Below, one piece after another: positions 20,638 through 40,474 of a DNA stretch of 42,184 nucleotides. Positions within the stretch are counted from its first letter, which is position 1; each line of letters begins with the position of its first letter. Source of the stretch: a virus (Duplodnaviria; Heunggongvirae; Uroviricota; Caudoviricetes). The stretch is from IMG/VR virus record IMGVR_UViG_2565956633_000005, positions 1 through 42,184 of that record. One strand, given 5' to 3'. The translations under genes and the position numbers were made by a program. The notes below the pieces were generated by a model. It was not told the DNA's origin. It worked only from the letters and a program-made list of their open reading frames with translations, and made no database searches.

Positions 20638-21105
20638 TTACTTCAGGCACTGCGTGGTGATGTATTCCTGCAGCGCCCTCAGGGCTGTTTGGTCGCTGAG
20701 GATTCCGGATCGGATACCGAGAACGTTTCGTCCAGCAACTGCAGAGAGTTCGACGGTGGCATCATCGCCCATGCTGGAGGCGCCGGTGGTTTGGGTTGAG
20801 GCTGACACTGGACATTTGCCTTTGACGAGCACCCGACCACCATTATCAAGCTTGCGCTGCAGAGCATCATTTTCAGCTTTTGCATCGGCTAATTCCTTCG
20901 TGTATTTGGCATCGAGCGCTGCGACGTCTCTCTGACGGGTCTGCATGTCAGCGATGGTGTCTTTCGCCAGGCTGAGCTGCTCAGTCACTTTATCGCGCTG
21001 CCTTTTGAACTCGGTGGCGTTGTCATGGTAGTGGCTAGCCAACCATCCGAGACTGACTATCAGGCAGATCACAATGGCGCTGATAATGGTGGTTAATCGG
21101 CTCAT
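20638..21105 (-). CDS. Rz: i-spanin (Rz-like)
   Basis: ATG at 21103-21105 overlapping endolysin stop; N-terminal TM helix then coiled-coil-like region. Confidence 0.65.
20679..20885 (-). CDS. Rz1: o-spanin lipoprotein (Rz1-like), embedded in Rz in +1 frame
   Basis: 68 aa; lipobox-like ...LIMVVGC; Pro-rich ([12 protein letters not shown]). Confidence 0.6.
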
Positions 21106-21605
21106 TTCTGCCCCCACAAACAAACTTCACGCTCAATCTCGCGGCGAGTTACCAGGCCTTTCCACTGCTTGCCCTTGGCGTAAGTCCAGCGGCGCAGCTG
21201 GTCGCACGCACCTTTCTGGTCGCCCTGGTTGATTTTGCGCAGCAGCGTGGAGGTCTGGAAGTTTCCAGCGCCGACGTTATACGCGAATGAGTACAGCGCC
21301 CCTCTCATCGTTTCGGGGATCGGAGCATTGATATATGGGTTAATCTGTCGGGCGACAATATTCAGGTCTTTATCCAGCAGCGCCTGGCACTCTGCTTTGG
21401 TGTAGGTCTTGCCGAGGATAATATCTTTACCAGTATGGCCCCAGCATACAGTCCACACTCCAACAACATCCCGATAAGGCTGATAGCGTACACCTTCAAG
21501 GCCATCATTACCCGTTGGGCCAGTAATCAACGCCGCAGCGATAGCAATAGCGCCAGCGGGTATCGCTGCAATAACGCTATTCTTCAGCTTTGGTGGCATA
21601 GCCAT
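21102..21605 (-). CDS. SAR endolysin, glycoside hydrolase family 24
   Basis: N-terminal Gly/Ala-rich signal-anchor-release segment [20 protein letters not shown]; E-x8-D-x5-T catalytic spacing ([16 protein letters not shown]). Confidence 0.8.
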
Positions 21606-21855
21606 TGCGCCGATCCTCCCGTTCTTTCCAGCGGAAATACCAGTTCACTGCACAGGTAATAACAGTGCATGCGATACCGACAATAATTGCCCAGTCGCTC
21701 AGGCTTAACCCTGCAATTCTGTCGGCCAACATCCAGGACACCTCTTTTGCTGTTTTAGCTGTTTCGGCATATGCCTTCGCTGATACACCGCAGCCGGTCA
21801 GCGTGGTTCCTGTTCCATATGAAAGTCTGCTGTAAATGGTGCTCATTCTGGTCAT
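21577..21855 (-). CDS. pinholin (phage 21 S-like) with dual-start motif
   Basis: MTRM... dual start; TMD2 [29 protein letters not shown] resembles S21 pinholin; overlaps endolysin start. Confidence 0.7.
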
Positions 21856-22262
21856 AGCCTCACCTCCGATTTTTCGGATGGCGCTGTGTGTGTTTGAAAA
21901 GGGTCAGGCTTCACGGGCTGGATTTATCAACAAAGCACGTAGCGGATGATTCCCGTGAGCCTGAAATTGATGAATATGTCTGAAATAACTAGACCATTAG
22001 TAAAACAACTCGATAAATGTGGTTAAATGAGACTACGTTCTCACAACTTAATTAGTACCAATGATTATCAAGCCCTGCCCCTACTGCGGAAAGTTAATTA
22101 ACCCAGAATCACTTGTGTGTAGCCACTGCCGGATAGTGAATCCTTTTGTGAAGGCCAGCAGAAGAGAAAAAGCGAAGAATGTATTAGTAATCGCTCTCGT
22201 TGCTGCTTTTTTAATTTGGATGATTCTCTGAGTTGCCAGTTTTCAATGAAGATAATGCGGGC

Positions 22263-22289
22263 AAAAAAAGCCTGCTCGGACGAACAGGC
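22263..22289 (-). terminator. intrinsic terminator candidate
   Basis: Minus-strand hairpin GCCTG-N10-CAGGC followed by U7 (plus A-run 22263-22269). Confidence 0.45.
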
Positions 22290-22706
22290 ATGAAAAATAA
22301 CAATACCGTCAAGGAGGTGGCGCCGGGTGCCTCCCGGTGGAACAGCCCCAGCCGACTAGTTCCGCGCAAACAAACCTGGACAAAAAAGTTTGACTGGACG
22401 CCCCGCCGCATAGGGGGATTCACCACGAACCAAAAGATAAAATCATCCGGTGACCGGGGCAATATCTAACCGGAACTTTTCAGAATCACTTATTGTTTCC
22501 TGGAGAGTACATGAGCGTTGGTGAATTCACGTGATGCTTTTGGATGAGCGCTGAACCCAAAGGTCAGTATTTTCACACAGCAATTTTGCAAAAAGCAGCG
22601 CCCATTCAAAACCAGGTCGCTTTCCAGTCACTCCGGGGAACCCATCATCGCAGACTGGAAAGCTTTTACTGGAGCGGGCAAAGGAATCGAACCTCTGACG
22701 CGCAGC

Positions 22707-23132
22707 TTATTTCCAGGTTTCGCCATTTAAGGCTGAAAGCACTGTTTGATGTGTTACACCAAACATTCTCCCTAGCCCTCTGGCTCCATAAACCTTATGT
22801 CGTGGAATGTAGTTTTCTCTGATGAACTGGACGCTGTCCATTGTTAGCTTGCTCATACCATTCAGCTCACCAGCTACTAAGTAGCTAAGGTCAAATTTGG
22901 TTTTCTGAATGTGGCATGCAGAACATAGTAGTTGGCACTTTTCAACCTCAGCATAAAACACCGAATCTGAGTGATAGTGCATCTCGCTTACATTTGCTGA
23001 TTTGGTGGAAGGGTCTATGCGGTCAAACTGAAGCGAATATTCGGATCCGCAACTCGCGCAACGACCACCCAACTTTTCCACGGCCTTAGCAAGCCTAGCC
23101 CTTCGATTAAGATAGTAATCTTTGCTCGGCAT
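22707..23132 (-). CDS. HNH endonuclease
   Basis: 141 aa; Cys pairs CASCGS...H...CSACH; GAGGTG RBS. Confidence 0.65.
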   Translation of the reverse strand: MPSKDYYLNRRARLAKAVEKLGGRCASCGSEYSLQFDRIDPSTKSANVSEMHYHSDSVFYAEVEKCQLLCSACHIQKTKFDLSYLVAGELNGMSKLTMDSVQFIRENYIPRHKVYGARGLGRMFGVTHQTVLSALNGETWK

Positions 23133-23167
23133 TTACCACCTCTGCCACTGAACTAGACCGGCGAATT

Positions 23168-23242
23168 TGGCGGGACAGGAAGGATTCGAACCTTCGACCA
23201 TTCGGTTAACAGCCGAACGCACAACCGCTGTGCTTCTGACCC
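23168..23242 (-). tRNA. tRNA-Asn (anticodon GTT)
   Basis: Hand-folded cloverleaf: T arm GAAGG-TTCGAAT-CCTTC, anticodon loop CTGTTAA, G73 discriminator, encoded CCA; deviations A8 and a U-U mismatch in the acceptor stem. Confidence 0.6.
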
Positions 23243-23249
23243 TGAAATG

Positions 23250-23275
23250 AAAAAGCCCCGCACGATGGCGAGGCT
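23250..23275 (-). terminator. hairpin plus U5 between late promoter candidate and tRNA
   Basis: 8-bp stem with one mismatch, then UUUUU on minus-strand transcript. Confidence 0.3.
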
Positions 23276-23328
23276 CTTAATTCTTTGTCGACCTACGAAG
23301 CTATGGCGACGATATCATATTTACATGA

Positions 23329-23357
23329 AATATATGCTATTTAATTGACTTTTGCAA
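23329..23357 (-). promoter_or_regulatory. candidate late promoter (pR'-like)
   Basis: Minus strand TTGCAA-17 nt-TATATT overlapping the 3' end of the Q-like gene. Confidence 0.3.
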
Positions 23358-24030
23358 TACCATGCCGCGAAAAAGTCGTTTTTTGTTGTGAACGTGATCG
23401 AGAAACCGTCAGCAAAGCTTGTCTGTCCAATCCTTGGAAAATTTCCCCCATAGCCCGCCAGTAGCCAGAATAGTTATGGCTCCAGTTATCGGGTTTAATT
23501 CCGATCATAGAAGCTGGCGCATAACGTAAGCAGCCTTCCCTGCCTGAAATATCTGCTTTTTCATTCTGAGCCGCCAGCCAGATGAGCTGACGCAGGCGAT
23601 CTACCGTTTTCTTTGCAATGCGCACACCTGCAAATTGTTGGTTGAATTGCTCCCACGCCCAGCGGACAATCGTCTCCTGGAGCTCCCAGCAGATATTGTC
23701 GCTGTAGGTCCAGAGCAACCATGCTCTCTGATGGTCTTCCAGAGACAGGACAGCGCGGCGCCATGATGCGGTGCCGAACTCTACCGGACTCACCAGCGCG
23801 ATTGACGAGCCCTTGGCGCGTGACTGACTGCCGCTCATCGGCGGGCCGTCGGGGTTAACCATGCGCTTTTTCTGCGCGTCATAGACTTTCTTCCGCCCCC
23901 GACTCCGCGCCGTCGCGGTGAATTGCGCGTTCTCGGCGAAAGCTACCAGCTGCCCTTTCGTCGCCCCGCTGAGGTCTGCGGTCGCCACAATGAGCTGCTG
24001 ACGTACGTATTCCAGTTGCTGACTGTTCAT
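23341..24030 (-). CDS. putative late antiterminator Q-like protein
   Basis: 229-aa ORF in the Q position between nin genes and late leader; family assignment tentative. Confidence 0.5.
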   Translation of the reverse strand: MNSQQLEYVRQQLIVATADLSGATKGQLVAFAENAQFTATARSRGRKKVYDAQKKRMVNPDGPPMSGSQSRAKGSSIALVSPVEFGTASWRRAVLSLEDHQRAWLLWTYSDNICWELQETIVRWAWEQFNQQFAGVRIAKKTVDRLRQLIWLAAQNEKADISGREGCLRYAPASMIGIKPDNWSHNYSGYWRAMGEIFQGLDRQALLTVSRSRSQQKTTFSRHGIAKVN

Positions 24031-24139
24031 GCGGCTTCCTTCTGTGGCTGGTTGGTTTTGGTCTGGCTGTGCTTTGCTATTGGCGGCAGGTTGGCGCGCT
24101 TAACGCTTTCTGCCTGGTAGCGGATAATCTGGTCACGTG

Positions 24140-31030: not shown

Positions 31031-31798
31031 ATGGTTAAAAAAGACGATTTAAAAGAAGAATTCTCGAAGAGACTTCGCGCTGCATTGCTTGATGCTGGCG
31101 TGGGTGGGCGTGGGCAGGCTGGCAGGATCAGGGAAGCTATGAAGTCCCAAGGGATTGCTGTATCTGAGCCCGGGATCTGGAAGTGGCTTAACGCATCAGC
31201 AATACCAGACCAAACCAATATCCTTGCACTTAGCCGCTGGCTTGGGGTTCGCCCTGAGTGGCTGGAATACGGAAGGAATGATCCTGAACCTGAACTGCAC
31301 AGGGTATCATCCATCCCGCCTGAATCTGAGTGGGGAACTGTCGACGCTTGGGACAAAAATACCCCCCTACCTGACGATGAGGTGGAAGTACCGTTTCTGA
31401 AGGATATCGAGTTTGCGTGTGGTGATGGGCGTGTTCATAGCGAAGATCATAACGGCTTTAAACTGAGGTTCTCCAAGGCAACGCTCAGAAGGGTGGGTGC
31501 AAATAGTGATGGTTCTGGAGTGCTTTGCTTTCCCGCTTCTGGTGACAGCATGGAGCCCGTTATTCCTGACGGCGCAACGGTAGCAGTCGATACAGGCAAC
31601 AAGCGGATTATTGACGGCGAACTCTATGCTATTAACCAGGGCGATTTAAAGCGCATAAAGCAGCTTTATCGAAAGCCTGGTGGGAAGCTATTAATACGAA
31701 GCATCAATCGCGATTATGACGATGAAGAGGCTGATGAGGCAGATGTCGAGATAATCGGTTTTGTGTTCTGGTACTCGGTATTGCGATATCGCCGATAA
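31031..31798 (+). CDS. cI: CI-like repressor (HTH plus S24 LexA-like autopeptidase domain)
   Basis: 255 aa; C-terminal GDSMEPVIPDGATVAV...K motif. Confidence 0.8.
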   Translation: MVKKDDLKEEFSKRLRAALLDAGVGGRGQAGRIREAMKSQGIAVSEPGIWKWLNASAIPDQTNILALSRWLGVRPEWLEYGRNDPEPELHRVSSIPPESEWGTVDAWDKNTPLPDDEVEVPFLKDIEFACGDGRVHSEDHNGFKLRFSKATLRRVGANSDGSGVLCFPASGDSMEPVIPDGATVAVDTGNKRIIDGELYAINQGDLKRIKQLYRKPGGKLLIRSINRDYDDEEADEADVEIIGFVFWYSVLRYRR

Positions 31799-32064: not shown

Positions 32065-32544
32065 ATGGATAAAATTAATTACCCACCCCTGTTTGAGCCA
32101 GGGCTCCATGACATGGATGAAGCTGGATTAAAATCGTATTGTGTCGATTGCTTTCCTTCATCATCCAGGCGAGGCATGCTATACTGTAATTTTATACAGC
32201 TACTCGAATCTATTCGAGAATTATCTGCTCAATATGGCTGTTTTACAGAAATATGGGTTGATGGTTCATACACCACGTCTAAACCAGAGCCTGATGATAT
32301 TGATATTTTGTTGGTATGTGACTATAGCAATATAAACTCAATACCTGTCATGCTTCGGGGCCGCGTCGATAATTTGCTTGACCGAAACTACATCAAACAA
32401 AACTACAAAATTGATGTCCTACTACTCATGAAGAATTTAGATGACCCTAACTATGATTATGAGTACTGGCGTAGCTACTGGCGCGGTTGGTTTGGTTTTG
32501 ATCGCAGTGAAAACCCGAAAGGGTTAGTGAGGATTTTTTTATGA
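32065..32544 (+). CDS. minimal nucleotidyltransferase-like protein (Pol-beta superfamily signature)
   Basis: 159 aa; AAGG RBS; EIWVDGSYTTSKPEPDDIDILLV fits hG[GS]x9-13Dx[DE]; later KIDVLLL acidic strand; AT-rich. Confidence 0.55.
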   Translation: MDKINYPPLFEPGLHDMDEAGLKSYCVDCFPSSSRRGMLYCNFIQLLESIRELSAQYGCFTEIWVDGSYTTSKPEPDDIDILLVCDYSNINSIPVMLRGRVDNLLDRNYIKQNYKIDVLLLMKNLDDPNYDYEYWRSYWRGWFGFDRSENPKGLVRIFL

Positions 32545-33473
32545 ATGATAAATCAATGTTTAAAAATTGCGATAAACGCATTGATTTCATTCAAAAAGAA
32601 GTCGATGCAATGAAGCAAAACAAAACCAGGTCCTTTGCTGACATGCTTCTTTATCGCTCCATGGATTCTCATCTGAGCGATTTGAAGGCCGAAAAATTAA
32701 AGCAAGATAGTCGGCACCCACTTATCGATTTTTTTGAGCTGCGGCTGAAAGGCTCTGAGGTTGACTTTGGCTCTATTCCTTTAGAGCTGCTTGGGGCTAT
32801 TTCAACAAATCTTGCAGCGCTAATACAAAGAGCAACACACAAAATTGCCTCAGGCAAGGACTCAAAAAAAGTTCCCTACGACGTGAAAAGCTCCTTAAAC
32901 CTCAGGCTGGCTGATTTATCCCCTGGGTCTACAAAATTGGGCGTCACCTTCTCTACAGGAATAGCAGAATTAGTAGAAACAGTACCCAGCAAGGCTGTAA
33001 AAGGCATATTCGATTTGTTGTTAAGCGATGACGACAACAACTTCATGAATCACGTCGCTGAAATTGGATACAATTCCACTGTAAGCCTTAAGAGAATCGT
33101 AGAGGAATGCGATAAACACAACTTAACATTTGATGCAAGTTGGACCGGTCCATTTAGTAATGGCACCAAGGTGGCAACTATTGACTCCAATAAAATTAAG
33201 TACTTGGTGAGTAGACTTACATCAACCATTTCATCCCCTCCCATTACTGAAACGGTTACAGGCGAACTGGTCGTTCTATCCAAATATGGGAAGCTGGAGC
33301 TTGATGTTGGTGGTGAACATTTAAAGGCTTCCTATCCGATTGAAATGCTAGATTTAATACAAAAAAAACACAAGGTCGGACAGATTGTTTCTCTTTTAGT
33401 GGAGACTACTGAGATTCACAATGATCGCATAGGTCTGTACCGTAAAAACCATCTTGTTAAATCGGTTCTTTAA
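32541..33473 (+). CDS. hypothetical protein, partner of NTase-like gene
   Basis: 310 aa; ATGA overlap with upstream gene; GTGAGGA RBS; no recognisable motif. Confidence 0.55.
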   Translation: MNDKSMFKNCDKRIDFIQKEVDAMKQNKTRSFADMLLYRSMDSHLSDLKAEKLKQDSRHPLIDFFELRLKGSEVDFGSIPLELLGAISTNLAALIQRATHKIASGKDSKKVPYDVKSSLNLRLADLSPGSTKLGVTFSTGIAELVETVPSKAVKGIFDLLLSDDDNNFMNHVAEIGYNSTVSLKRIVEECDKHNLTFDASWTGPFSNGTKVATIDSNKIKYLVSRLTSTISSPPITETVTGELVVLSKYGKLELDVGGEHLKASYPIEMLDLIQKKHKVGQIVSLLVETTEIHNDRIGLYRKNHLVKSVL

Positions 33474-35960: not shown

Positions 35961-38900
35961 ATGGAATTCTTTAATGTGGTTAAAGCCACTCAGAAATCCG
36001 GAAAGCAAGATGCAGTGGTCTGGTTCACTGCTAAAACCGAGGCTCGCGCCAATCTGATGCTGGATGTTGCGCTGGAAGATGCAGGTATCGAAACAGGTCG
36101 GGGTAAGGACTACGCCAAACCGATTCGCACTGATTTCCCAGTTGTCGACGGCCTGCCGAAAGAAGGTGAAGTTGATTTTACCTGGTGTGATCGCTACGAG
36201 CTTCAGGACGATGGGCGCACCTGGCTGCCAAAAGCCGCTGGTGTGTCTACTGGTTCCGTTGACGCCCCCTACACACCTACTCCGACCGTAATCGTTGAAG
36301 ATGCGACTGCGTCCGAAATTGTCCCGGTTGAAAACCGTACTCCAGCGGTCCGCTTTGCCGTCCATCTGATGAACGATAAATACCAAACCCACGTCACTAA
36401 AGAGCAGCAGTTGGCTGCCAGCGAAATGTCACTGGATGAAGGCAATACATATCTCCATAGCCTGCTTGTGGCAAGGAACGATGTGCCCGCGACCGCCAAA
36501 CTCAGCCTGAATGCTGAGTGGAAAATGATTCGGGCGGTTAAGGACATTTTCACACCCGACGAAGAGCACGAACCAAGATTGATCGCTGCATTCATGTCTG
36601 ACTGGGTGAACACCGATGCCGGTGACCGCAATCAACTGGTAGAAGACTGGCGCAGTGGTAAGTTGCAGTTGCTCAAAACTGAAACCAGCAACGCTGCTGA
36701 CGTTACAACGGGTCAAGATCTCACTGTTGAGGACGGTATCCAGACCGACGAGAACGGCCGGGCAGAAGGTGGCGTCGTTGATGGTGAAGTCGATACCGAA
36801 GAGCAATCCCAGCAGACACAGCAACCGAACCTGATCGTTGTTGCCACCCTGCCATTCCGCCAGCGCGTACTGGCTCAGTTCATCGGTGATGGTGAATATC
36901 TCTATCACATCGACGCAGGGCAGAAAAATGAGATTGTCCGCCTTGAGATGGACACCGATGACGCGTACGTCCAGAACCTGCTGCTGGCAGCTGAGAATGT
37001 GGAAGCATTCAAAAAAGCCATTGAGCACGATATTCATAAAGTCGTGAATGCCGTTAAGAAAGTCTTCCCTGTCGATGGAAAAATCCCTGAACTCGCAACC
37101 TTAATCCAGTTTTTGAAATTGTGGTTCGCTACAGATCACATCGACCGCGGTATCCTCGTTCGCGAATGGGCCGCCGGTAATCGCATCAGTAGTGTGCAGC
37201 GTACTGATTCCGGAACCAATGCCAACGGCGGTTACGTCACTGACCGTGGACCTGATACATACCATACCCTTGACACTCTCGATTTAGAGATTGCATGTGC
37301 CCTTCTGCCTATGGACTTCAACCACTTCGAGATCCCGGGCAGCATTCTTCGTCGCGCTAAAGAAATCGTGACCAAAAAAGAAGAACCATGGAAATCATGG
37401 AGCAACATCCTGCGCAATCAGCCAGGCGTTCTGGGTGTTAACCGCACGGCTATTTTTAACCTGGTACGTATCGCACCGGAAAATATTCATTTAACTCCTG
37501 TCGCTCACCTGGAATTTGTTAACCAGACCATGACAGCCGCGTTCAATTCCGCGGTCGAGTTATTGCCGTTGCATGAGGCTGAACCCGCAGCACAGGAAAT
37601 TCCCCAACCTGAAGGTAAGGAGTCTCCGCGCAAATCCTTCTGCACTCACGAAGAGAACCTGCAACGCGTGCGTGAAGAAGGAGCACGCCGCCGCGCAGAG
37701 GAAGCGGCAGCACAACCGCAGAAAGTCGAACAAGAACTGGTTAAAAATGTCGGCAACGGAATATTCGACGTTACGGCTTTGCTGCAGAACTCAGCAACTC
37801 ATGGCACGAAAAAGGCTACGGAGACCACCAGCAATGTGCAGGTTCAAGAAACTGTCAGTGATGAAAAACAAGCTGGTGATGAAGTACAGCCAGGCGAAAG
37901 CAGTCTGGAGTCTGGTGAAGAGTCAGATACCAGCCAGAAGGACGATGTAAACCAGAATACGGATTCTGTCGCCAAAAATAGCGATTCTGTAAGCCAAACC
38001 GAACCAGTTGCAGCACAAACCGAGCCAGAAGCGCAATCTGACGAACCGGCTGTTGTTTATCCCGCTTATTTCGAGCCAGGCCGCTATGAAGGGCTGCCAA
38101 ACGAGGTTTACCACGCCGCCAACGGCATCAGCTCAACCCAGGTGAAAGATGCGCGCGTTTCGCTGATGTACTTCAATGCGCGCCACGTAGAGAAAACCAT
38201 CGTCAAAGAGCGCTCAGCGGTGCTGGACATGGGCAACTTGGTGCATGCGCTGGCGTTGCAGCCTGAACTACTGGACGCAGAATTCAGCGTTGAACCGGTG
38301 ATCCCTGAAGGCGCATTCACAACGGCCGCGACCCTGCGCGCCTTTATCGATGAGCACAATGCCAGCCTGCCGGCGCTGCTGTCTGCCGACGACATCAAGG
38401 TGTTACTGGAAGAGTACAACGCCACCCTGCCGCCGCAGGTTCCGCTTGGCGCTAACCTGGAAGAAACGGCACAGAACTATATGGCGCTGCCAGCTGACTT
38501 CCAGCGTATTGATGGTGACCAGAAGCAGACGGCGACGGCAATGAAGGCATGCATTAAAGAGTACAACGCCACCCTGCCGCCGCCGGTTAAAACCAGCGGC
38601 AGCCGTGACGCGCTGCTGGAGCAGTTGGCAATCATCAACCCTGACCTTGTGGCTCAGGAAGCACAGAAACCGGCACCACTGAAAGTGTCCGGTACCAAAG
38701 CAGACATGATCCAGGCCGTGAAGGCAGTCAAACCAGATGCCGTATTTGCCGACGAACTGCTGGATGCCTGGCGCGATAACCCGGAAGGAAAAGTGCTGGT
38801 CACCCGCCAGCAGCTGAGCACCGCGCTGAATATTCAAAAAGCGCTTCTGGCACACCCGACCGCCGGCATGCTGCTGACCCACCCTAGCCGAGCCGTTGAG

Positions 38901-39350
38901 GTGAGCTACTTTGGTTTTGACGAGGAGACGGGCTTGGAAGTTCGTGTGCGCCCTGACCTTGAGATCGACCTGGATGGCGTGCGTATAGGTGCAGACCTGA
39001 AAACCATCAGCATGTGGAATGTTAAGCAGGAAAGCCTGCGCGCCAGGCTACACCGGGAAATTATTGAACGTGATTATCACCTGAGCGCGGCTATGTACTG
39101 CGAAACCGCAGCGCTGGATCAGTTCTTCTGGATTTTCGTCAACAAAGACGAGAACTACCACTGGATCGCCATCATCGAGGCATCCGCTGAACTACTGGAG
39201 CTGGGTATGCTCGAGTACCGCAAAGCGATGCGCAATATCGCAACCGGATTCGACACAGGTGAATGGCCAGCGCCAATCACTGCTGACTACACCGACGAAC
39301 TGAACGACTTCGACCTGCGCCGCCTTGAAGCGCTGCGTACTCAGGCATAA
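35961..39350 (+). CDS. recE: large RecE-like exonuclease (putative exodeoxyribonuclease VIII-type)
   Basis: 1129-aa ORF with TGAGGA RBS directly upstream of RecT-like gene; nuclease assignment by synteny, tentative. Confidence 0.5.
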   Translation: MEFFNVVKATQKSGKQDAVVWFTAKTEARANLMLDVALEDAGIETGRGKDYAKPIRTDFPVVDGLPKEGEVDFTWCDRYELQDDGRTWLPKAAGVSTGSVDAPYTPTPTVIVEDATASEIVPVENRTPAVRFAVHLMNDKYQTHVTKEQQLAASEMSLDEGNTYLHSLLVARNDVPATAKLSLNAEWKMIRAVKDIFTPDEEHEPRLIAAFMSDWVNTDAGDRNQLVEDWRSGKLQLLKTETSNAADVTTGQDLTVEDGIQTDENGRAEGGVVDGEVDTEEQSQQTQQPNLIVVATLPFRQRVLAQFIGDGEYLYHIDAGQKNEIVRLEMDTDDAYVQNLLLAAENVEAFKKAIEHDIHKVVNAVKKVFPVDGKIPELATLIQFLKLWFATDHIDRGILVREWAAGNRISSVQRTDSGTNANGGYVTDRGPDTYHTLDTLDLEIACALLPMDFNHFEIPGSILRRAKEIVTKKEEPWKSWSNILRNQPGVLGVNRTAIFNLVRIAPENIHLTPVAHLEFVNQTMTAAFNSAVELLPLHEAEPAAQEIPQPEGKESPRKSFCTHEENLQRVREEGARRRAEEAAAQPQKVEQELVKNVGNGIFDVTALLQNSATHGTKKATETTSNVQVQETVSDEKQAGDEVQPGESSLESGEESDTSQKDDVNQNTDSVAKNSDSVSQTEPVAAQTEPEAQSDEPAVVYPAYFEPGRYEGLPNEVYHAANGISSTQVKDARVSLMYFNARHVEKTIVKERSAVLDMGNLVHALALQPELLDAEFSVEPVIPEGAFTTAATLRAFIDEHNASLPALLSADDIKVLLEEYNATLPPQVPLGANLEETAQNYMALPADFQRIDGDQKQTATAMKACIKEYNATLPPPVKTSGSRDALLEQLAIINPDLVAQEAQKPAPLKVSGTKADMIQAVKAVKPDAVFADELLDAWRDNPEGKVLVTRQQLSTALNIQKALLAHPTAGMLLTHPSRAVEVSYFGFDEETGLEVRVRPDLEIDLDGVRIGADLKTISMWNVKQESLRARLHREIIERDYHLSAAMYCETAALDQFFWIFVNKDENYHWIAIIEASAELLELGMLEYRKAMRNIATGFDTGEWPAPITADYTDELNDFDLRRLEALRTQA

Positions 39351-39355
39351 GGGGA

Positions 39356-40474
39356 ATGATGATGGAAAACACGAATATCGTAACCGCTGAACAGCAGACT
39401 CCAAACACGATCTCAGCCAGCAATGCCATTTTCAACGTGCAGGCTTTAACCCAGCTTCAGTCTGTCGCCGGGTTGATGGCACAGGCAGCCGTAACGGTGC
39501 CTGAGCACCTCCGCGGCAATCCGGCAGACTGCATGGCCATCATCATGCAGGCGATGCAGTGGGGTATGAACCCTTACGCCGTGGCGCAAAAGACGCACCT
39601 GGTTAACGGTGTCCTGGGATACGAAGCGCAACTGGTTAATGCGGTGATCTCCAGCTCAAACGCCATCGTTGGCCGCTTTCACTATGAGTACGAGGGCGAC
39701 TGGTCGAAATGTGCCAGCAGCCGCGAGATAACCGTTAAAAAGCCTGCGAAAGGTGGCGGGACGTACGACAAGAAAGAAATGGTACGCGGTTGGGAAAGTG
39801 CTGATGAACAAGGACTGTCGGTACGGGTAGGTGCCGTTATTCGCGGTGAAAGTGATATCACCTGGGGAGAGCCTGTTTTCCTCTCCAGCGTAATCACACG
39901 TAATTCTCCACTTTGGGTATCAAACCCGAAACAGCAGATCGCTTATCTGGCACTCAAATACTGGGCGCGCCTGTATTGCCCTGCAGTTGTTCTTGGTGTG
40001 TACACCCCTGATGAGATTGAACAGCGCACAGAAAAAGAGATCAACCCAACGCCGCAACGCGTTAGCCTGGCTGATATCTCAGGTGACACCGTCACAACCA
40101 CGCAAAGCGCACAGGAATCGTCGGTAAATGTCGACTCTCTTGCCGATGATTTCCGCGAACGCATCGAATCTGCTCAGGACGTGGATAGCGCCAAATCGCT
40201 GCGTGCCGACATTGAAACGGCGAAAGCTACGCTGGGATCCGCACTATTCACCGAGCTAAAAAACAAAGCCGTAAAGCGTTATTACCTAGTGGATGCACGC
40301 AACAAGGTTGAGGAGGCTATTAAATCCCTGCCCCAGCCCGACGAGCCGCATGCAGCCGAACGGTTCGCTGAAGCCGAGCGCATGCTTGCATCTTCAAAGC
40401 GTCACTTAGGCGATGAACTGCACGATCAATTCAGCATCACCCTGGCGGATATGAAACCGGAATACGTGGCCTGA
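39356..40474 (+). CDS. recT: RecT/Red-beta family single-strand annealing protein
   Basis: ...IIMQAMQWGMNPYAVAQKTHLVNGVLGYEAQL... resembles Bet/RecT core; AAGGGG RBS. Confidence 0.55.
   Translation: MMMENTNIVTAEQQTPNTISASNAIFNVQALTQLQSVAGLMAQAAVTVPEHLRGNPADCMAIIMQAMQWGMNPYAVAQKTHLVNGVLGYEAQLVNAVISSSNAIVGRFHYEYEGDWSKCASSREITVKKPAKGGGTYDKKEMVRGWESADEQGLSVRVGAVIRGESDITWGEPVFLSSVITRNSPLWVSNPKQQIAYLALKYWARLYCPAVVLGVYTPDEIEQRTEKEINPTPQRVSLADISGDTVTTTQSAQESSVNVDSLADDFRERIESAQDVDSAKSLRADIETAKATLGSALFTELKNKAVKRYYLVDARNKVEEAIKSLPQPDEPHAAERFAEAERMLASSKRHLGDELHDQFSITLADMKPEYVA

Follow-up and report, generated by a model that had tools for sequence, protein, structure and literature searches.

Codon usage was long the explanation for the tRNA genes that lambdoid phages carry between Q and the lysis genes. 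The DNA analysed here, a 42,184-nt stretch of IMG/VR record IMGVR_UViG_2565956633_000005 (the window), carries at this position a tRNA-Asn(GUU) gene together with a gene of the HNH endonuclease family, which raises the question of what such a tRNA is for and how a nuclease gene came to lie beside it. In the reading developed below, to which we give a probability of roughly 0.7, the region is a Q-dependent leader whose functional tRNA-Asn belongs to a counter-defence cargo, the tRNA-Thr of that cargo has been split by a homing-type HNH gene, and the copy of this gene in the window, which has arginine at residue 38, would be nuclease-dead.

Organization of the late leader

The prophage in the window combines a head and terminase of the lambda type with a contractile tail. 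Since the annotation of the L6-21 prophage is offset from the window by indels outside approximately 21-24 kb, the ORFs of the window were scanned directly. The features on either side of the tRNA and HNH genes are as follows.

23341..24030, minus strand: Q, late antiterminator gene, 229 aa (Pfam PF06323 Phage_antiter_Q, E=2.7e-71)
23329..23357, minus strand: pR'-like late promoter, TTGCAA-17-TATATT, with a -35 hexamer that overlaps the end of Q
23245..23325, minus strand: short terminated leader RNA of the isrJ family, with a tR'-like intrinsic terminator at its end
22452..22669, minus strand: conserved leader spacer, common to HK639 and E. coli OW1E2
22259..22451, minus strand: STnc100-family structured RNA with an intrinsic terminator at its end (Rfam RF02076)
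20638..21855, minus strand: lysis cassette (Pfam holin, Phage_lysozyme and Phage_lysis (Rz))
21577-21855, minus strand: holin
21102-21605, minus strand: endolysin
20638-21123, minus strand: Rz
20679-20885, minus strand: Rz1-like ORF embedded in Rz (ORF list)

A preliminary description of this locus had placed the tRNA and HNH genes between Q and the lysis genes, behind a promoter-like sequence and a hairpin with a U-run and ahead of a second terminator, and each of these flanking elements was recovered. Q was identified by PF06323, as were the holin and endolysin genes by their Pfam families, and RefSeq names the Q protein of a 99.8% identical E. coli prophage 'bacteriophage antitermination protein Q'. 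The sequence TTGCAA-17-TATATT was present at 23357..23329 (-) and was the sole sigma-70-like site within 21800-23500. Shuffled sequences contained a mean of 2.1 such sites, so that a single site is not above chance and the weight of the assignment rests on its position at the end of Q, the same place relative to Q at which pR' is annotated in phage 21. From this position, the site may work as a pR'-type late promoter.

Both hairpins belong to curated RNA families, isrJ and STnc100, a point that the preliminary description had overlooked. The upstream hairpin, which is terminator-like, has an 11-bp G+C-rich stem (23251-23278) followed by the U-run UUUUUCAUUU (z=-2.4 by folding) and forms the 3' end of a full-length match to isrJ (Rfam RF01393, 23252-23325; 65.1 bits against a gathering cut-off of 37). 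The second terminator, with a stem at 22270-22289 and a T-run to 22262 (terminator scan and folding; hairpin of -13.5 kcal/mol, z=-3.2), forms the 3' end of a full-length match to STnc100 (71.7 bits against a gathering cut-off of 47) and lies just 5' of the holin gene. The Rfam search gave no match for the spacer at 22452..22669.

The order of Q, promoter, short terminated transcript and lysis genes is that of a lambdoid late leader. The curated annotation of phage 21 lists Q, pR', QBE, the tR' terminator, tRNA-Asn, tRNA-Thr and S21, and the late leaders of phage 21, SfI, Sf6 and HK446 have the same element order as the window from Q to the holin gene. The arrangement is therefore already known, and the phage 21 annotation bears out the resemblance that had been proposed to other lambdoid phages with tRNA cargo in this interval. 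We infer that the region is the leader of a Q-dependent late operon of a lambdoid E. coli prophage of the phage 21/SfI type. RNA polymerase that starts at pR' (23357-23329) would normally halt at tR' and free an isrJ-family RNA of approximately 75 nt. Q-modified RNA polymerase would pass tR' and transcribe, in this order, tRNA-Asn(GUU), the former tRNA-Thr(UGU), the spacer, the STnc100-family RNA with its terminator, and the lysis and morphogenesis genes. The window differs from phage 21 in its Q family (PF06323), its isrJ-family leader and its tRNA-Asn, which is allele A (with A8), whereas the phage 21 tRNA-Asn is allele B of the same family. It further differs in that no intact tRNA-Thr is present, the Thr slot being a remnant with the HNH ORF, and in the extra spacer and STnc100-family RNA that follow this slot.

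A conserved tRNA-Asn(GUU)

23168..23242, minus strand: phage tRNA-Asn(GUU), allele A, with G73, encoded CCA, A8 and U4·U69 (ARAGORN, Rfam)

A tRNA-Asn(GTT) had been proposed at 23168-23242 (-), together with a check by tRNA predictors. ARAGORN accepted it and called it as the only tRNA in the window (tRNA-Asn(gtt)), the Rfam tRNA family RF00005 scored it at 63.9 bits against a gathering cut-off of 29, and its cloverleaf is the minimum-free-energy fold. The two departures from the canonical U8 and fully paired acceptor stem that had been pointed out, A8 and a U-U acceptor mismatch (U4·U69), are both present. They had been taken as possible signs of decay, and on this point comparison of the alleles argued otherwise. 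Of the 21 unique tRNA-Asn sequences, which cover alleles A, B and C, 18 retain U4·U69, so that this mismatch is a family trait rather than a product of decay; A8 is fixed in the widespread allele A and specific to it. Compensatory changes separate the three alleles in all four stems, with double changes at acceptor pairs 6 and 7, D pair 2, anticodon pairs 1-3 and T pairs 1-3. The identity elements of AsnRS are G34-U35-U36 and the discriminator G73, and all of these are present in every allele. The tRNA-Asn of the window is 100% identical in Klebsiella phages and HK639. Judged by this pattern of covariation and conservation, it is a conserved and probably functional phage tRNA.

An HNH-family ORF inside a tRNA-Thr(UGU) gene

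23141..23162, minus strand: 5' remnant of tRNA-Thr(UGU) type A, tRNA positions 1-23, 22 nt: GCCGGTCTAGTTCAGTGGCAGA
23133..23140, minus strand: cassette 5' end, GGTGGTAA (read directly from the sequence)
22707..23132, minus strand: HNH-family endonuclease gene, 141 aa (PHROGs phrog_4234, 9e-20)
22670..22709, minus strand: 3' remnant of tRNA-Thr(UGU) from position 36, 40 nt: TAAGCTGCGCGTCAGAGGTTCGATTCCTTTGCCCGCTCCA

The preliminary description had an HNH gene following the tRNA. The family assignment held, given the match to phrog_4234 and the RefSeq label of WP_001568783.1, 'HNH endonuclease', but the simple downstream placement did not. On comparison with intact genes, the ORF sits within a tRNA-Thr(TGT) gene, which it cuts in two. 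The intact tRNA-Thr(tgt) genes of Enterobacter phage BHUENT6 and E. coli M37H match the 5' remnant at 22 of 22 positions, and the AATTC spacer that follows tRNA-Asn is the same in the window, M37H and BHUENT6. The 3' remnant matches the intact type-A tRNA-Thr at 35 of 35 positions, and its acceptor end, like the sequence downstream of it, shows no difference from the tRNA-Thr locus of E. coli OW1E2. The insertion replaced 12 nt, tRNA-Thr positions 24-35, and the parts lost are the 3' strand of the D-stem, the 5' strand of the anticodon stem and the first two anticodon bases. In the RefSeq annotation, the split tRNA-Thr is unmarked.

An insertion in the D/anticodon region that keeps both ends of tRNA-Thr would be expected if the ORF were encoded by a self-splicing intron, removal of which restored a functional tRNA-Thr. 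Group I introns, some of them with endonuclease ORFs, are known from the anticodon loops of bacterial tRNAs, and where they carry homing endonucleases the ORF interrupts the anticodon region of the tRNA, as in the window. They have also been described in tRNA genes of Patescibacteria (PMC13011429). The window differs from these introns in that ribozyme and exon sequence are both missing and the tRNA is not restorable. The Rfam search of 21800-24100 returned no intron or ribozyme family at E<=10, and the ORF takes up 426 of the 434 nt between the flanks, which leaves no room for a ribozyme core. The 12 tRNA-Thr nucleotides that are gone include two anticodon bases and one strand each of the D-stem and anticodon stem, and the acceptor strands of the window (3' GCCCGCT, 5' GCCGGTC) are not complementary. 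A group I or other intron was therefore rejected as scarcely conceivable.

Nor was there support for a functional split tRNA or natural 'tRNA scaffold', whose halves would pair with each other while tRNA-processing enzymes cut out the mRNA, although the case against it is weaker for the copies with matching halves. The 3' acceptor strand fails to complement the 5' strand in the window and eight other copies, 5' halves of the phage 21 type are found joined to type-A 3' halves, and the halves vary at 6 of 57 positions. Compared with synonymous sites, of which 32 of 142 are variable, the tRNA-Thr halves are only modestly more conserved, as would be expected either from mild constraint or from recombination with intact alleles.

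The HNH cassette and its distribution

The cassette is 431 bp long, is essentially one ORF, and has a GC content of 45% compared to 52% for the window. The ORF draws on the tRNA at both ends: its ribosome-binding site comes partly from the tRNA-Thr D-arm, with a Shine-Dalgarno sequence, AGAGGTGG, made up of the tRNA-derived AGA and the cassette 5' end GGTGGTAA, and its stop codon is the first three bases of the 3' remnant, U36-A37-A38. None of the open-access papers searched described an ORF that lies within a tRNA gene and borrows tRNA bases for its ribosome-binding site and stop codon, and they yielded nothing specific on HNH ORFs in lambdoid late leaders or inside tRNA genes. The 3' end of the ORF and the missing tRNA-Thr segment have 7 nt, CAGCCTT, in common; this match was treated as chance, because it falls in codons for the LNGETW motif, which is conserved in distant homologues outside the tRNA context.

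The protein has a predicted N-terminal HNH/zinc-finger domain and a C-terminal helix-turn-helix, and includes a sequence-specific DNA-binding module of the kind expected in a homing endonuclease. Among the residues of the two zinc-binding CxxC pairs and the C-terminal metal-binding His, C25, C28, C66, C70 and H74 do not vary, and the window copy also has C73. The ORF is under purifying selection (dN/dS 0.1-0.2, with dS up to 0.30), and the HNH motif is intact in nearly all alleles.

The protein might also be a packaging accessory like HK97 gp74, working with the terminase, in which case the ORF would be an ordinary late gene rather than a selfish element. However, the terminase is of the lambda gpA type and has an endonuclease domain of its own (PF20454, 2.2e-78), a fact on which the packaging role was rejected, and the ORF lies 3.5 kb from the terminase, not adjoining its genes, and inside a tRNA gene. 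The ORF was present in only 4 of the 113 E. coli genomes that match this region, and a catalytically altered allele (see below) persists on 42 contigs. We regard this role as very improbable.

Presence and absence of the cassette alternate at a single site in otherwise homologous genomes. Occupied sites were found in 4 E. coli genomes and 17 IMG/VR contigs, and empty sites in M37H (same upstream flank), OW1E2 (same downstream flank), BHUENT6 and 89 IMG/VR contigs. The insertion point is the same across genetic backgrounds and target alleles: junctions are identical in all 22 related copies, across four array types (Asn-Thr, Asn-Gly-Thr, Asn-Thr-Arg and Phe-Thr) and two Thr alleles, and the cassette 5' end is GGTGGTAA or GGTGGAAA throughout. 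Each of the four arrays has an intact counterpart with Thr(tgt) in the slot of the cassette. In four copies, the 5' half derives from the phage 21-type Thr allele and is joined at the same junction; sharing with the other copies starts only 3-4 nt before the cassette, a stretch too short for ordinary homologous recombination. The tRNA-Thr(UGU) of phage 21 is itself this 'type B' allele, and the same cassette interrupts type B in E. coli KL53 and L088/L093.

The wider family is tied to tRNA arrays in unrelated phyla, with a tRNA within 100 nt of the ORF or overlapping its end in 61 of 143 distant loci, and with 329 of 346 tRNAs co-oriented with the ORF. HNH genes are the commonest coding sequences inside tRNA arrays (PMC5966550, PMC6409571), and those of mycobacteria, mycobacteriophage and T5-like arrays show the same association, although they are described between tRNAs and the ORF of the window lies inside a tRNA gene. 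Together, these observations suggest that the cassette is a free-standing homing-endonuclease gene, the predicted target of which is the intact tRNA-Thr(UGU) gene; insertion there would remove both the nuclease target and the tRNA. T4 SegB, a free-standing GIY-YIG homing endonuclease embedded in the T4 tRNA cluster, cuts inside tRNA genes of relatives that lack segB and drives the inheritance of its own gene and flanks (PMC2330249), and it has recently been tied to anti-defence tRNA loci (PMC13096335). Like segB, the HNH gene of the window is a free-standing endonuclease gene in a phage tRNA cluster. SegB, however, is a nuclease of another family, and its gene lies between tRNA genes and destroys none, whereas the HNH ORF replaces the core of a tRNA gene and has a homing role predicted from sequence. 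A homing-type endonuclease gene would here overwrite a gene, as opposed to hiding in an intron, intein or intergenic spacer, and the phage presumably tolerates the loss because the gene that is hit is accessory.

Identical junctions could also result from one ancient insertion that was spread by recombination between mosaic phages. The cassette would then not be self-mobile; a single illegitimate insertion would have been followed by phage mosaicism at conserved tRNA sequences, and the protein would possibly be DNA-binding or regulatory. A single origin explains the identical junctions of all copies, the tRNA arrays are clearly mosaic, hybrid tRNAs in HK639 and OW1E2 included, and the persistence of the altered allele on 42 contigs is in line with it. 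Purifying selection on an ORF with a nearly always intact HNH motif argues against such an origin, as do the 3-4 nt shared before the cassette by copies with a phage 21-type 5' half, and the strong link of the wider family to tRNA arrays is that of homing endonucleases (PMC2330249, PMC5966550). We consider a non-mobile cassette unlikely and continue with the homing-endonuclease reading.

Counter-defence or codon supply

The Asn/Thr pair is probably a counter-defence tRNA cargo, because Thr(UGU) and Asn(GUU) are published targets of both P2 Old and PARIS AriB. The first host tRNA to be cut by P2 Old is tRNA-Thr(UGU), with Asn(GUU) cut at a slower rate, and the tRNA-Thr(UGU) of phage 21 guards against this nuclease, as tested (PMC12445682). 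AriB cleaves Lys(UUU), Thr(UGU) and Asn(GUU), with U39 and U16 among the bases that matter (PMC12409363). The two-tRNA cargo, which is standard in these phages, would replace the host tRNAs cut by these Toprim nucleases. Cleavage resistance and rescue of infection are known for the phage 21 tRNA-Thr and for T5 tRNAs (PMC12445682, PMC12409363), and the counter-defence tRNAs (T5 tRNA-Lys/Thr/Asn against PARIS, tRNA-Thr(UGU) against P2 Old) have the GUU and UGU anticodons in common with the pair of the window. The window differs in that its own tRNA-Thr is destroyed, and the HNH insertion has probably eliminated half of the counter-defence cargo.

By the published recognition rules (PMC12445682, PMC12409363), tRNA-Asn combines the anticodon of a defence target, GUU, with altered recognition determinants. 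The CNG motif of the host tRNA-Asn (28-30 / 40-42, CGG/CCG) is changed to UCG/CGA, and the paired motif is absent from phage alleles A and B. All three phage alleles have C39 where the host has U39, and allele A also has C16 in place of U16. The phage alleles thus differ from the host tRNA-Asn at positions where cleavage of other substrates is determined (PMC12409363), and by analogy the tRNA-Asn allele may have an anti-nuclease role. The type-A tRNA-Thr retains a CAG/CUG (CNG) motif and a full 5-bp anticodon stem, so that its resistance to P2 Old is not predicted by the published rule (PMC12445682).

Codon supply is the classical explanation for phage tRNAs, and under it tRNA-Asn would boost the decoding of AAC/AAU in highly expressed late genes, with no link to defence. 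Supply of this kind was proposed for the tRNA-Thr(UGU) of SfI on the basis of an ACA bias (PMC3636060), and ACA is somewhat frequent in the late genes of the window (10.9 per 1000 codons). The AAC/AAT usage of the late genes, which the preliminary description had named as a check, showed no enrichment, with 45.5 Asn codons per 1000 in late compared to 44.4 in early genes, and the codon-usage explanation of tRNA-Asn was set aside on this result. The hosts have a median of four tRNA-Asn genes, the SfI authors saw no Asn bias and called the role of tRNA-Asn unclear (PMC3636060), and the Asn/Thr pair matches the target set of Old and AriB. Codon supply is thus a rather doubtful explanation, and the published data agree better with a role in counter-defence (PMC12445682, PMC12409363).

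The H38R allele

The protein of the window differs from WP_001568783.1 only by H38R (codon 23019-23021, base 23020, minus strand), a change at a near-invariant catalytic histidine that the preliminary description had overlooked. At least 90% of the family has H38, and the adjacent D37 is invariant. The substitution costs 8 bits against Pfam HNH (PF01844) and takes the protein under the cut-off of 21.4 bits, the window copy scoring 15.1 and the H38 allele 23.4. The exact R38 protein was found on 42 contigs, which indicated that it is not a read error. The window copy is probably nuclease-dead, because H38R hits the general-base histidine of the D-H/H-H motif; that catalysis is lost with arginine is assumed from the role of this histidine in other HNH nucleases. 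Nuclease-dead copies are a stage expected as a fixed homing endonuclease decays.

A further-reaching interpretation is speculative, and we hold it to be improbable: the cassette would be an active tRNA-Thr(UGU)-specific homing endonuclease that spreads among lambdoid phages by destroying an anti-Old/anti-PARIS tRNA, the breaks made by HNH proteins would drive the shuffling of tRNA cassettes, and R38 would be a retained DNA-binding form. If so, a selfish element would be in direct conflict with phage counter-defence. Breaks made in tRNA genes by the HNH family would shuffle the Asn/Gly/Thr/Arg/Phe combinations and hybrid tRNAs of late leaders, and the H38R allele on its 42 contigs would be a nuclease-dead form kept for DNA binding, not simple decay. 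Near-identical prophages that carry either tRNA-Thr or the 431-bp HNH cassette in its place provide natural genotypes for a test of counter-defence, and these also differ in having a nuclease with or without the catalytic histidine. The R38 allele is annotated as 'hypothetical protein'.

The late leader between Q and the lysis genes

The window prophage carries an integrase, RecE/RecT, a lambda-type portal, capsid and gpA terminase, and a contractile tail; an S24-peptidase protein at 31031-31798 is taken to be its CI-type repressor. The late-leader region is 99.8% identical to prophages of E. coli L6-21 and PEC422. The preliminary description had placed a promoter-like site, two terminator-like hairpins, a tRNA-Asn(GTT) and an HNH endonuclease gene between Q and the lysis genes, and all were recovered, with Q upstream (PF06323, 2.7e-71) and holin and endolysin genes downstream:

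23357..23329, minus strand: promoter-like TTGCAA-17-TATATT
23252-23325, minus strand: isrJ-family leader, spanning predicted start site to first hairpin (full-length match to Rfam isrJ, 65.1 bits; gathering score 37)
23251-23278: first hairpin, 11-bp, G+C-rich, with a U-run
23168-23242, minus strand: tRNA-Asn(gtt)
22707-23132, minus strand: HNH ORF, 141 aa
22270-22289: second terminator
Ending in the second terminator, minus strand: STnc100-family RNA (full-length match to Rfam STnc100, 71.7 bits; gathering score 47)

The promoter-like sequence was the only sigma-70-like site in 21800-23500; as one site of this kind is no more than chance would give, its location is what lends it weight. ARAGORN identified the tRNA-Asn as the sole tRNA in the whole window; it scored 63.9 bits against the Rfam tRNA model (gathering 29), and its cloverleaf was the minimum-free-energy fold. 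The unusual A8 and the U4·U69 acceptor-stem mismatch were both present.

The order of these elements is that of the phage 21 late leader: in its curated record, Q is followed by pR' (-35, QBE, -10), the start site, a terminator, tRNA-Asn, tRNA-Thr and the S21 holin. Phage SfI carries the same two tRNAs (PMC3636060). The tRNA arrangement was thus already known, as had been supposed, and the ORF was already annotated as HNH. STnc100 has been described as a prophage-associated sRNA (bioRxiv 10.64898/2026.05.13.724894). In Salmonella Gifsy-1, IsrK is the sRNA that immediately follows antQ, and IsrJ comes later, beyond anrP (PMC4825925); in the window, by contrast, the isrJ-family RNA occupies the leader position next to Q. 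This difference suggests that IsrJ of Gifsy-1 may be what remains of a second pR' leader.

A leader segment of about 220 nt (22452-22669, minus strand), 94-99% conserved in HK639 and several E. coli prophages, contained no ORF and no Rfam match; it holds a possible weak hairpin with a T-run (GGGCGCTGCTTTTTGC).

The HNH ORF splits a tRNA-Thr(UGU) gene

The preliminary description was right that an HNH ORF follows the tRNA-Asn, but missed that this ORF sits within a tRNA-Thr(UGU) gene. The sequence GCCGGTCTAGTTCAGTGGCAGA (23162-23141) begins five bases past the tRNA-Asn, and TAAGCTGCGCGTCAGAGGTTCGATTCCTTTGCCCG... (22709-22670) starts at the ORF stop codon. In E. coli M37H and Enterobacter phage BHUENT6, both stretches lie within one intact tRNA-Thr(tgt), with only ACGGCAGCCTTG between them. 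The joined flanks indicated that a 431-bp cassette, consisting of GGTGGTAA and the ORF minus its stop codon, replaces tRNA positions 24-35 in the window. This removes the 3' strand of the D stem, the 5' strand of the anticodon stem and two bases of the anticodon, so that no tRNA-Thr can be made. The ORF in turn borrows from the tRNA: its Shine-Dalgarno sequence AGAGGTGG is completed by tRNA-derived AGA, and its stop codon is supplied by U36-A37-A38. No annotation marks such an endonuclease ORF, which replaces the core of a phage tRNA gene and takes its ribosome-binding site and stop codon from that gene, and no description of one was found in the accessible literature. The ORF fills the insertion, and an Rfam search detected no ribozyme there.

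The heptamer CAGCCTT occurs both at the ORF 3' end (22722-22728, minus strand), 12 nt upstream of the 3' junction, and at deleted tRNA-Thr positions 28-34. It could be a trace of microhomology used in insertion, but it falls in codons of the conserved LNGETW protein motif, and the identity is therefore probably due to chance.

Distribution of the cassette

Close copies were found in the window, 4 complete E. coli genomes and 17 IMG/VR contigs, and both junctions were identical in all 22. Four array architectures carry the cassette (Asn+HNH, Asn-Gly+HNH, Asn-HNH-Arg and Phe+HNH), and for each an intact counterpart exists with Thr(tgt) in the HNH slot. This recurrence across several tRNA-array backgrounds is not annotated, and no description of it was found in the accessible literature. 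Empty sites with the window's flank were present in M37H (upstream) and OW1E2 (downstream), and another 89 viral contigs carry an uninterrupted tRNA-Thr core. Four copies carry another Thr allele as their 5' half; it matches the phage 21 tRNA-Thr exactly and is interrupted at the same point, and sequence in common with the other copies starts only 3-4 nt before the cassette. Of 113 E. coli genomes with a match to the region, only 4 had the ORF, and the cassette has a G+C content of 45%, compared to 52% for the window. Divergence among the copies reaches dS 0.30, with dN/dS of 0.1-0.2 indicating purifying selection; one copy (L093) has a premature stop, and another cluster (P0002) is truncated. 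These comparisons suggest that the cassette is mobile, of the free-standing homing endonuclease type in phage tRNA clusters.

Imperfect tRNAs were also observed in two relatives. In HK639 (L001, 2640-2720, minus strand), the 5' part of a tRNA-Gly is joined to a T-arm and acceptor end of foreign origin (TGCCCGCTCCA), and ARAGORN made no call for this hybrid. In OW1E2 (L004, 1971-2045, minus strand), the acceptor 3' strand of the annotated tRNA-Thr, GCCCGCT, pairs poorly with the 5' strand. Both cases point to recombination within conserved sequence of the T-arm.

The HNH family and an H38R allele

Across unrelated phyla and viruses, the wider HNH family shows a strong association with tRNA genes. 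A tRNA lay within 100 nt of the ORF or overlapped its end in 61 of 143 distant loci, and 329 of 346 neighbouring tRNAs were co-oriented with the ORF. Earlier notes of HNH genes in tRNA arrays agree with this association (PMC5966550, PMC6409571), and it is consistent with T4 SegB, whose cleavage sites lie within tRNA genes (PMC2330249). Many distant HNH ORFs (L131, L163, L149, L020, L147 and others) abut or overlap tRNA genes with no spacer and reach their stop only ~10-20 nt into a downstream co-oriented tRNA, a parallel to the U36-A37-A38 stop in the window. A role of the HNH protein in packaging was considered and is unlikely, because the terminase has its own nuclease domain.

The window protein differs from RefSeq WP_001568783.1 by one base (23020), which changes His38 to Arg. 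We take His38 to be the general base of the D-H motif, as established for other HNH nucleases. The Pfam HNH score falls from 23.4 bits with H38 to 15.1 bits with R38 (cut-off 21.4), and the R38 protein of the window is probably inactive, judging from its sequence. The exact R38 protein, named 'hypothetical protein', occurs on 42 E. coli contigs and the H38 form on 301, indicating that R38 is a real, circulating, minority allele; H38 is kept in every other cluster member listed. The H38R allele is not annotated, and no description of it was found in the accessible literature. Across 22200-23400, the only further mismatch to L6-21 and PEC422 lies at 23318 (T in the window, G in the others), near the 5' end of the isrJ-family leader.

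The tRNA-Asn is conserved

Related loci yielded 199 tRNA-Asn(gtt) genes (33 unique sequences by ARAGORN calls), and 21 of the unique sequences were analysed. These comprised three alleles.

Alleles of the phage tRNA-Asn
Allele A: window, HK639, Klebsiella and Enterobacter phages
Allele B: phage 21 (exact match)
Allele C: rare

Compensatory double substitutions distinguish the alleles in the acceptor stem (pairs 6 and 7), D stem (pair 2), anticodon stem (pairs 1-3) and T stem (pairs 1-3). The anticodon, G73 and CCA are invariant. All three alleles have U4·U69, which was seen in 18 of the 21 sequences and is thus a maintained trait; allele C keeps it although both neighbouring pairs have changed. 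A8 is limited to allele A, where it is fixed. The suggestion that this tRNA might be decaying was not borne out by the compensatory changes and the retained U4·U69, and the sequences point to a conserved and constrained tRNA. It is quite different from the host tRNA-Asn, of which complete E. coli genomes have a median of four copies.

Possible roles of the tRNA cargo

Codon supply, for which the preliminary description had proposed a codon-usage check, is weakly supported for Asn: AAC+AAU made up 45.5 per 1000 codons in late genes versus 44.4 in early genes, and the SfI authors saw no Asn codon bias (PMC3636060). Published experiments suggest a different role. P2 Old kills lambda-infected cells by cleavage of host tRNA-Thr(UGU), cleaves tRNA-Asn(GUU) more slowly, and is countered by phage tRNA-Thr(UGU), including that of phage 21 (PMC12445682). 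PARIS AriB targets tRNA-Lys(UUU), Thr(UGU) and Asn(GUU) and is neutralised by the T5 versions of these tRNAs; U39 and U16 matter for its cleavage of tRNA-Lys (PMC12409363). The host tRNA-Asn has a paired CNG motif (C28-G29-G30 / C40-C41-G42), U39 and U16; the same positions read UCG/CGA, C39 and C16 in allele A, and AAG/CUU and C39 in allele B. By analogy, we infer that the phage tRNA-Asn may be a nuclease-resistant substitute for the host tRNA-Asn.

The type-A tRNA-Thr, intact in M37H and BHUENT6, differs at position 39, but with CAG/CUG and a full stem both retained it would not be expected to resist Old under the published rule. Irrespective of its precise specificity, the Thr half of the tRNA cargo has been lost from the window phage through the HNH insertion. 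The split locus does not overturn current views, but it provides natural genotypes for testing a counter-defence role of lambdoid late-leader tRNAs, and for testing a conflict between that role and a selfish nuclease gene.

Other modules of the prophage

Beside the S24-peptidase gene, two adjacent ORFs (32065-33473, plus strand) match the PADLOC candidate defence pair PDC-M63A (4e-41; Pfam DUF6932) and PDC-M63B (7.5e-45). They look like a candidate anti-phage system carried by the prophage at a typical moron position. At 35961-40474 (plus strand), RecT follows a 1129-aa RecE-like exonuclease with an Exonuc_VIII N-terminus and a PDDEXK-like C-terminus, forming a Rac-type recombination module; the related L6-21 prophage instead carries lambda Exo/Bet/Gam.
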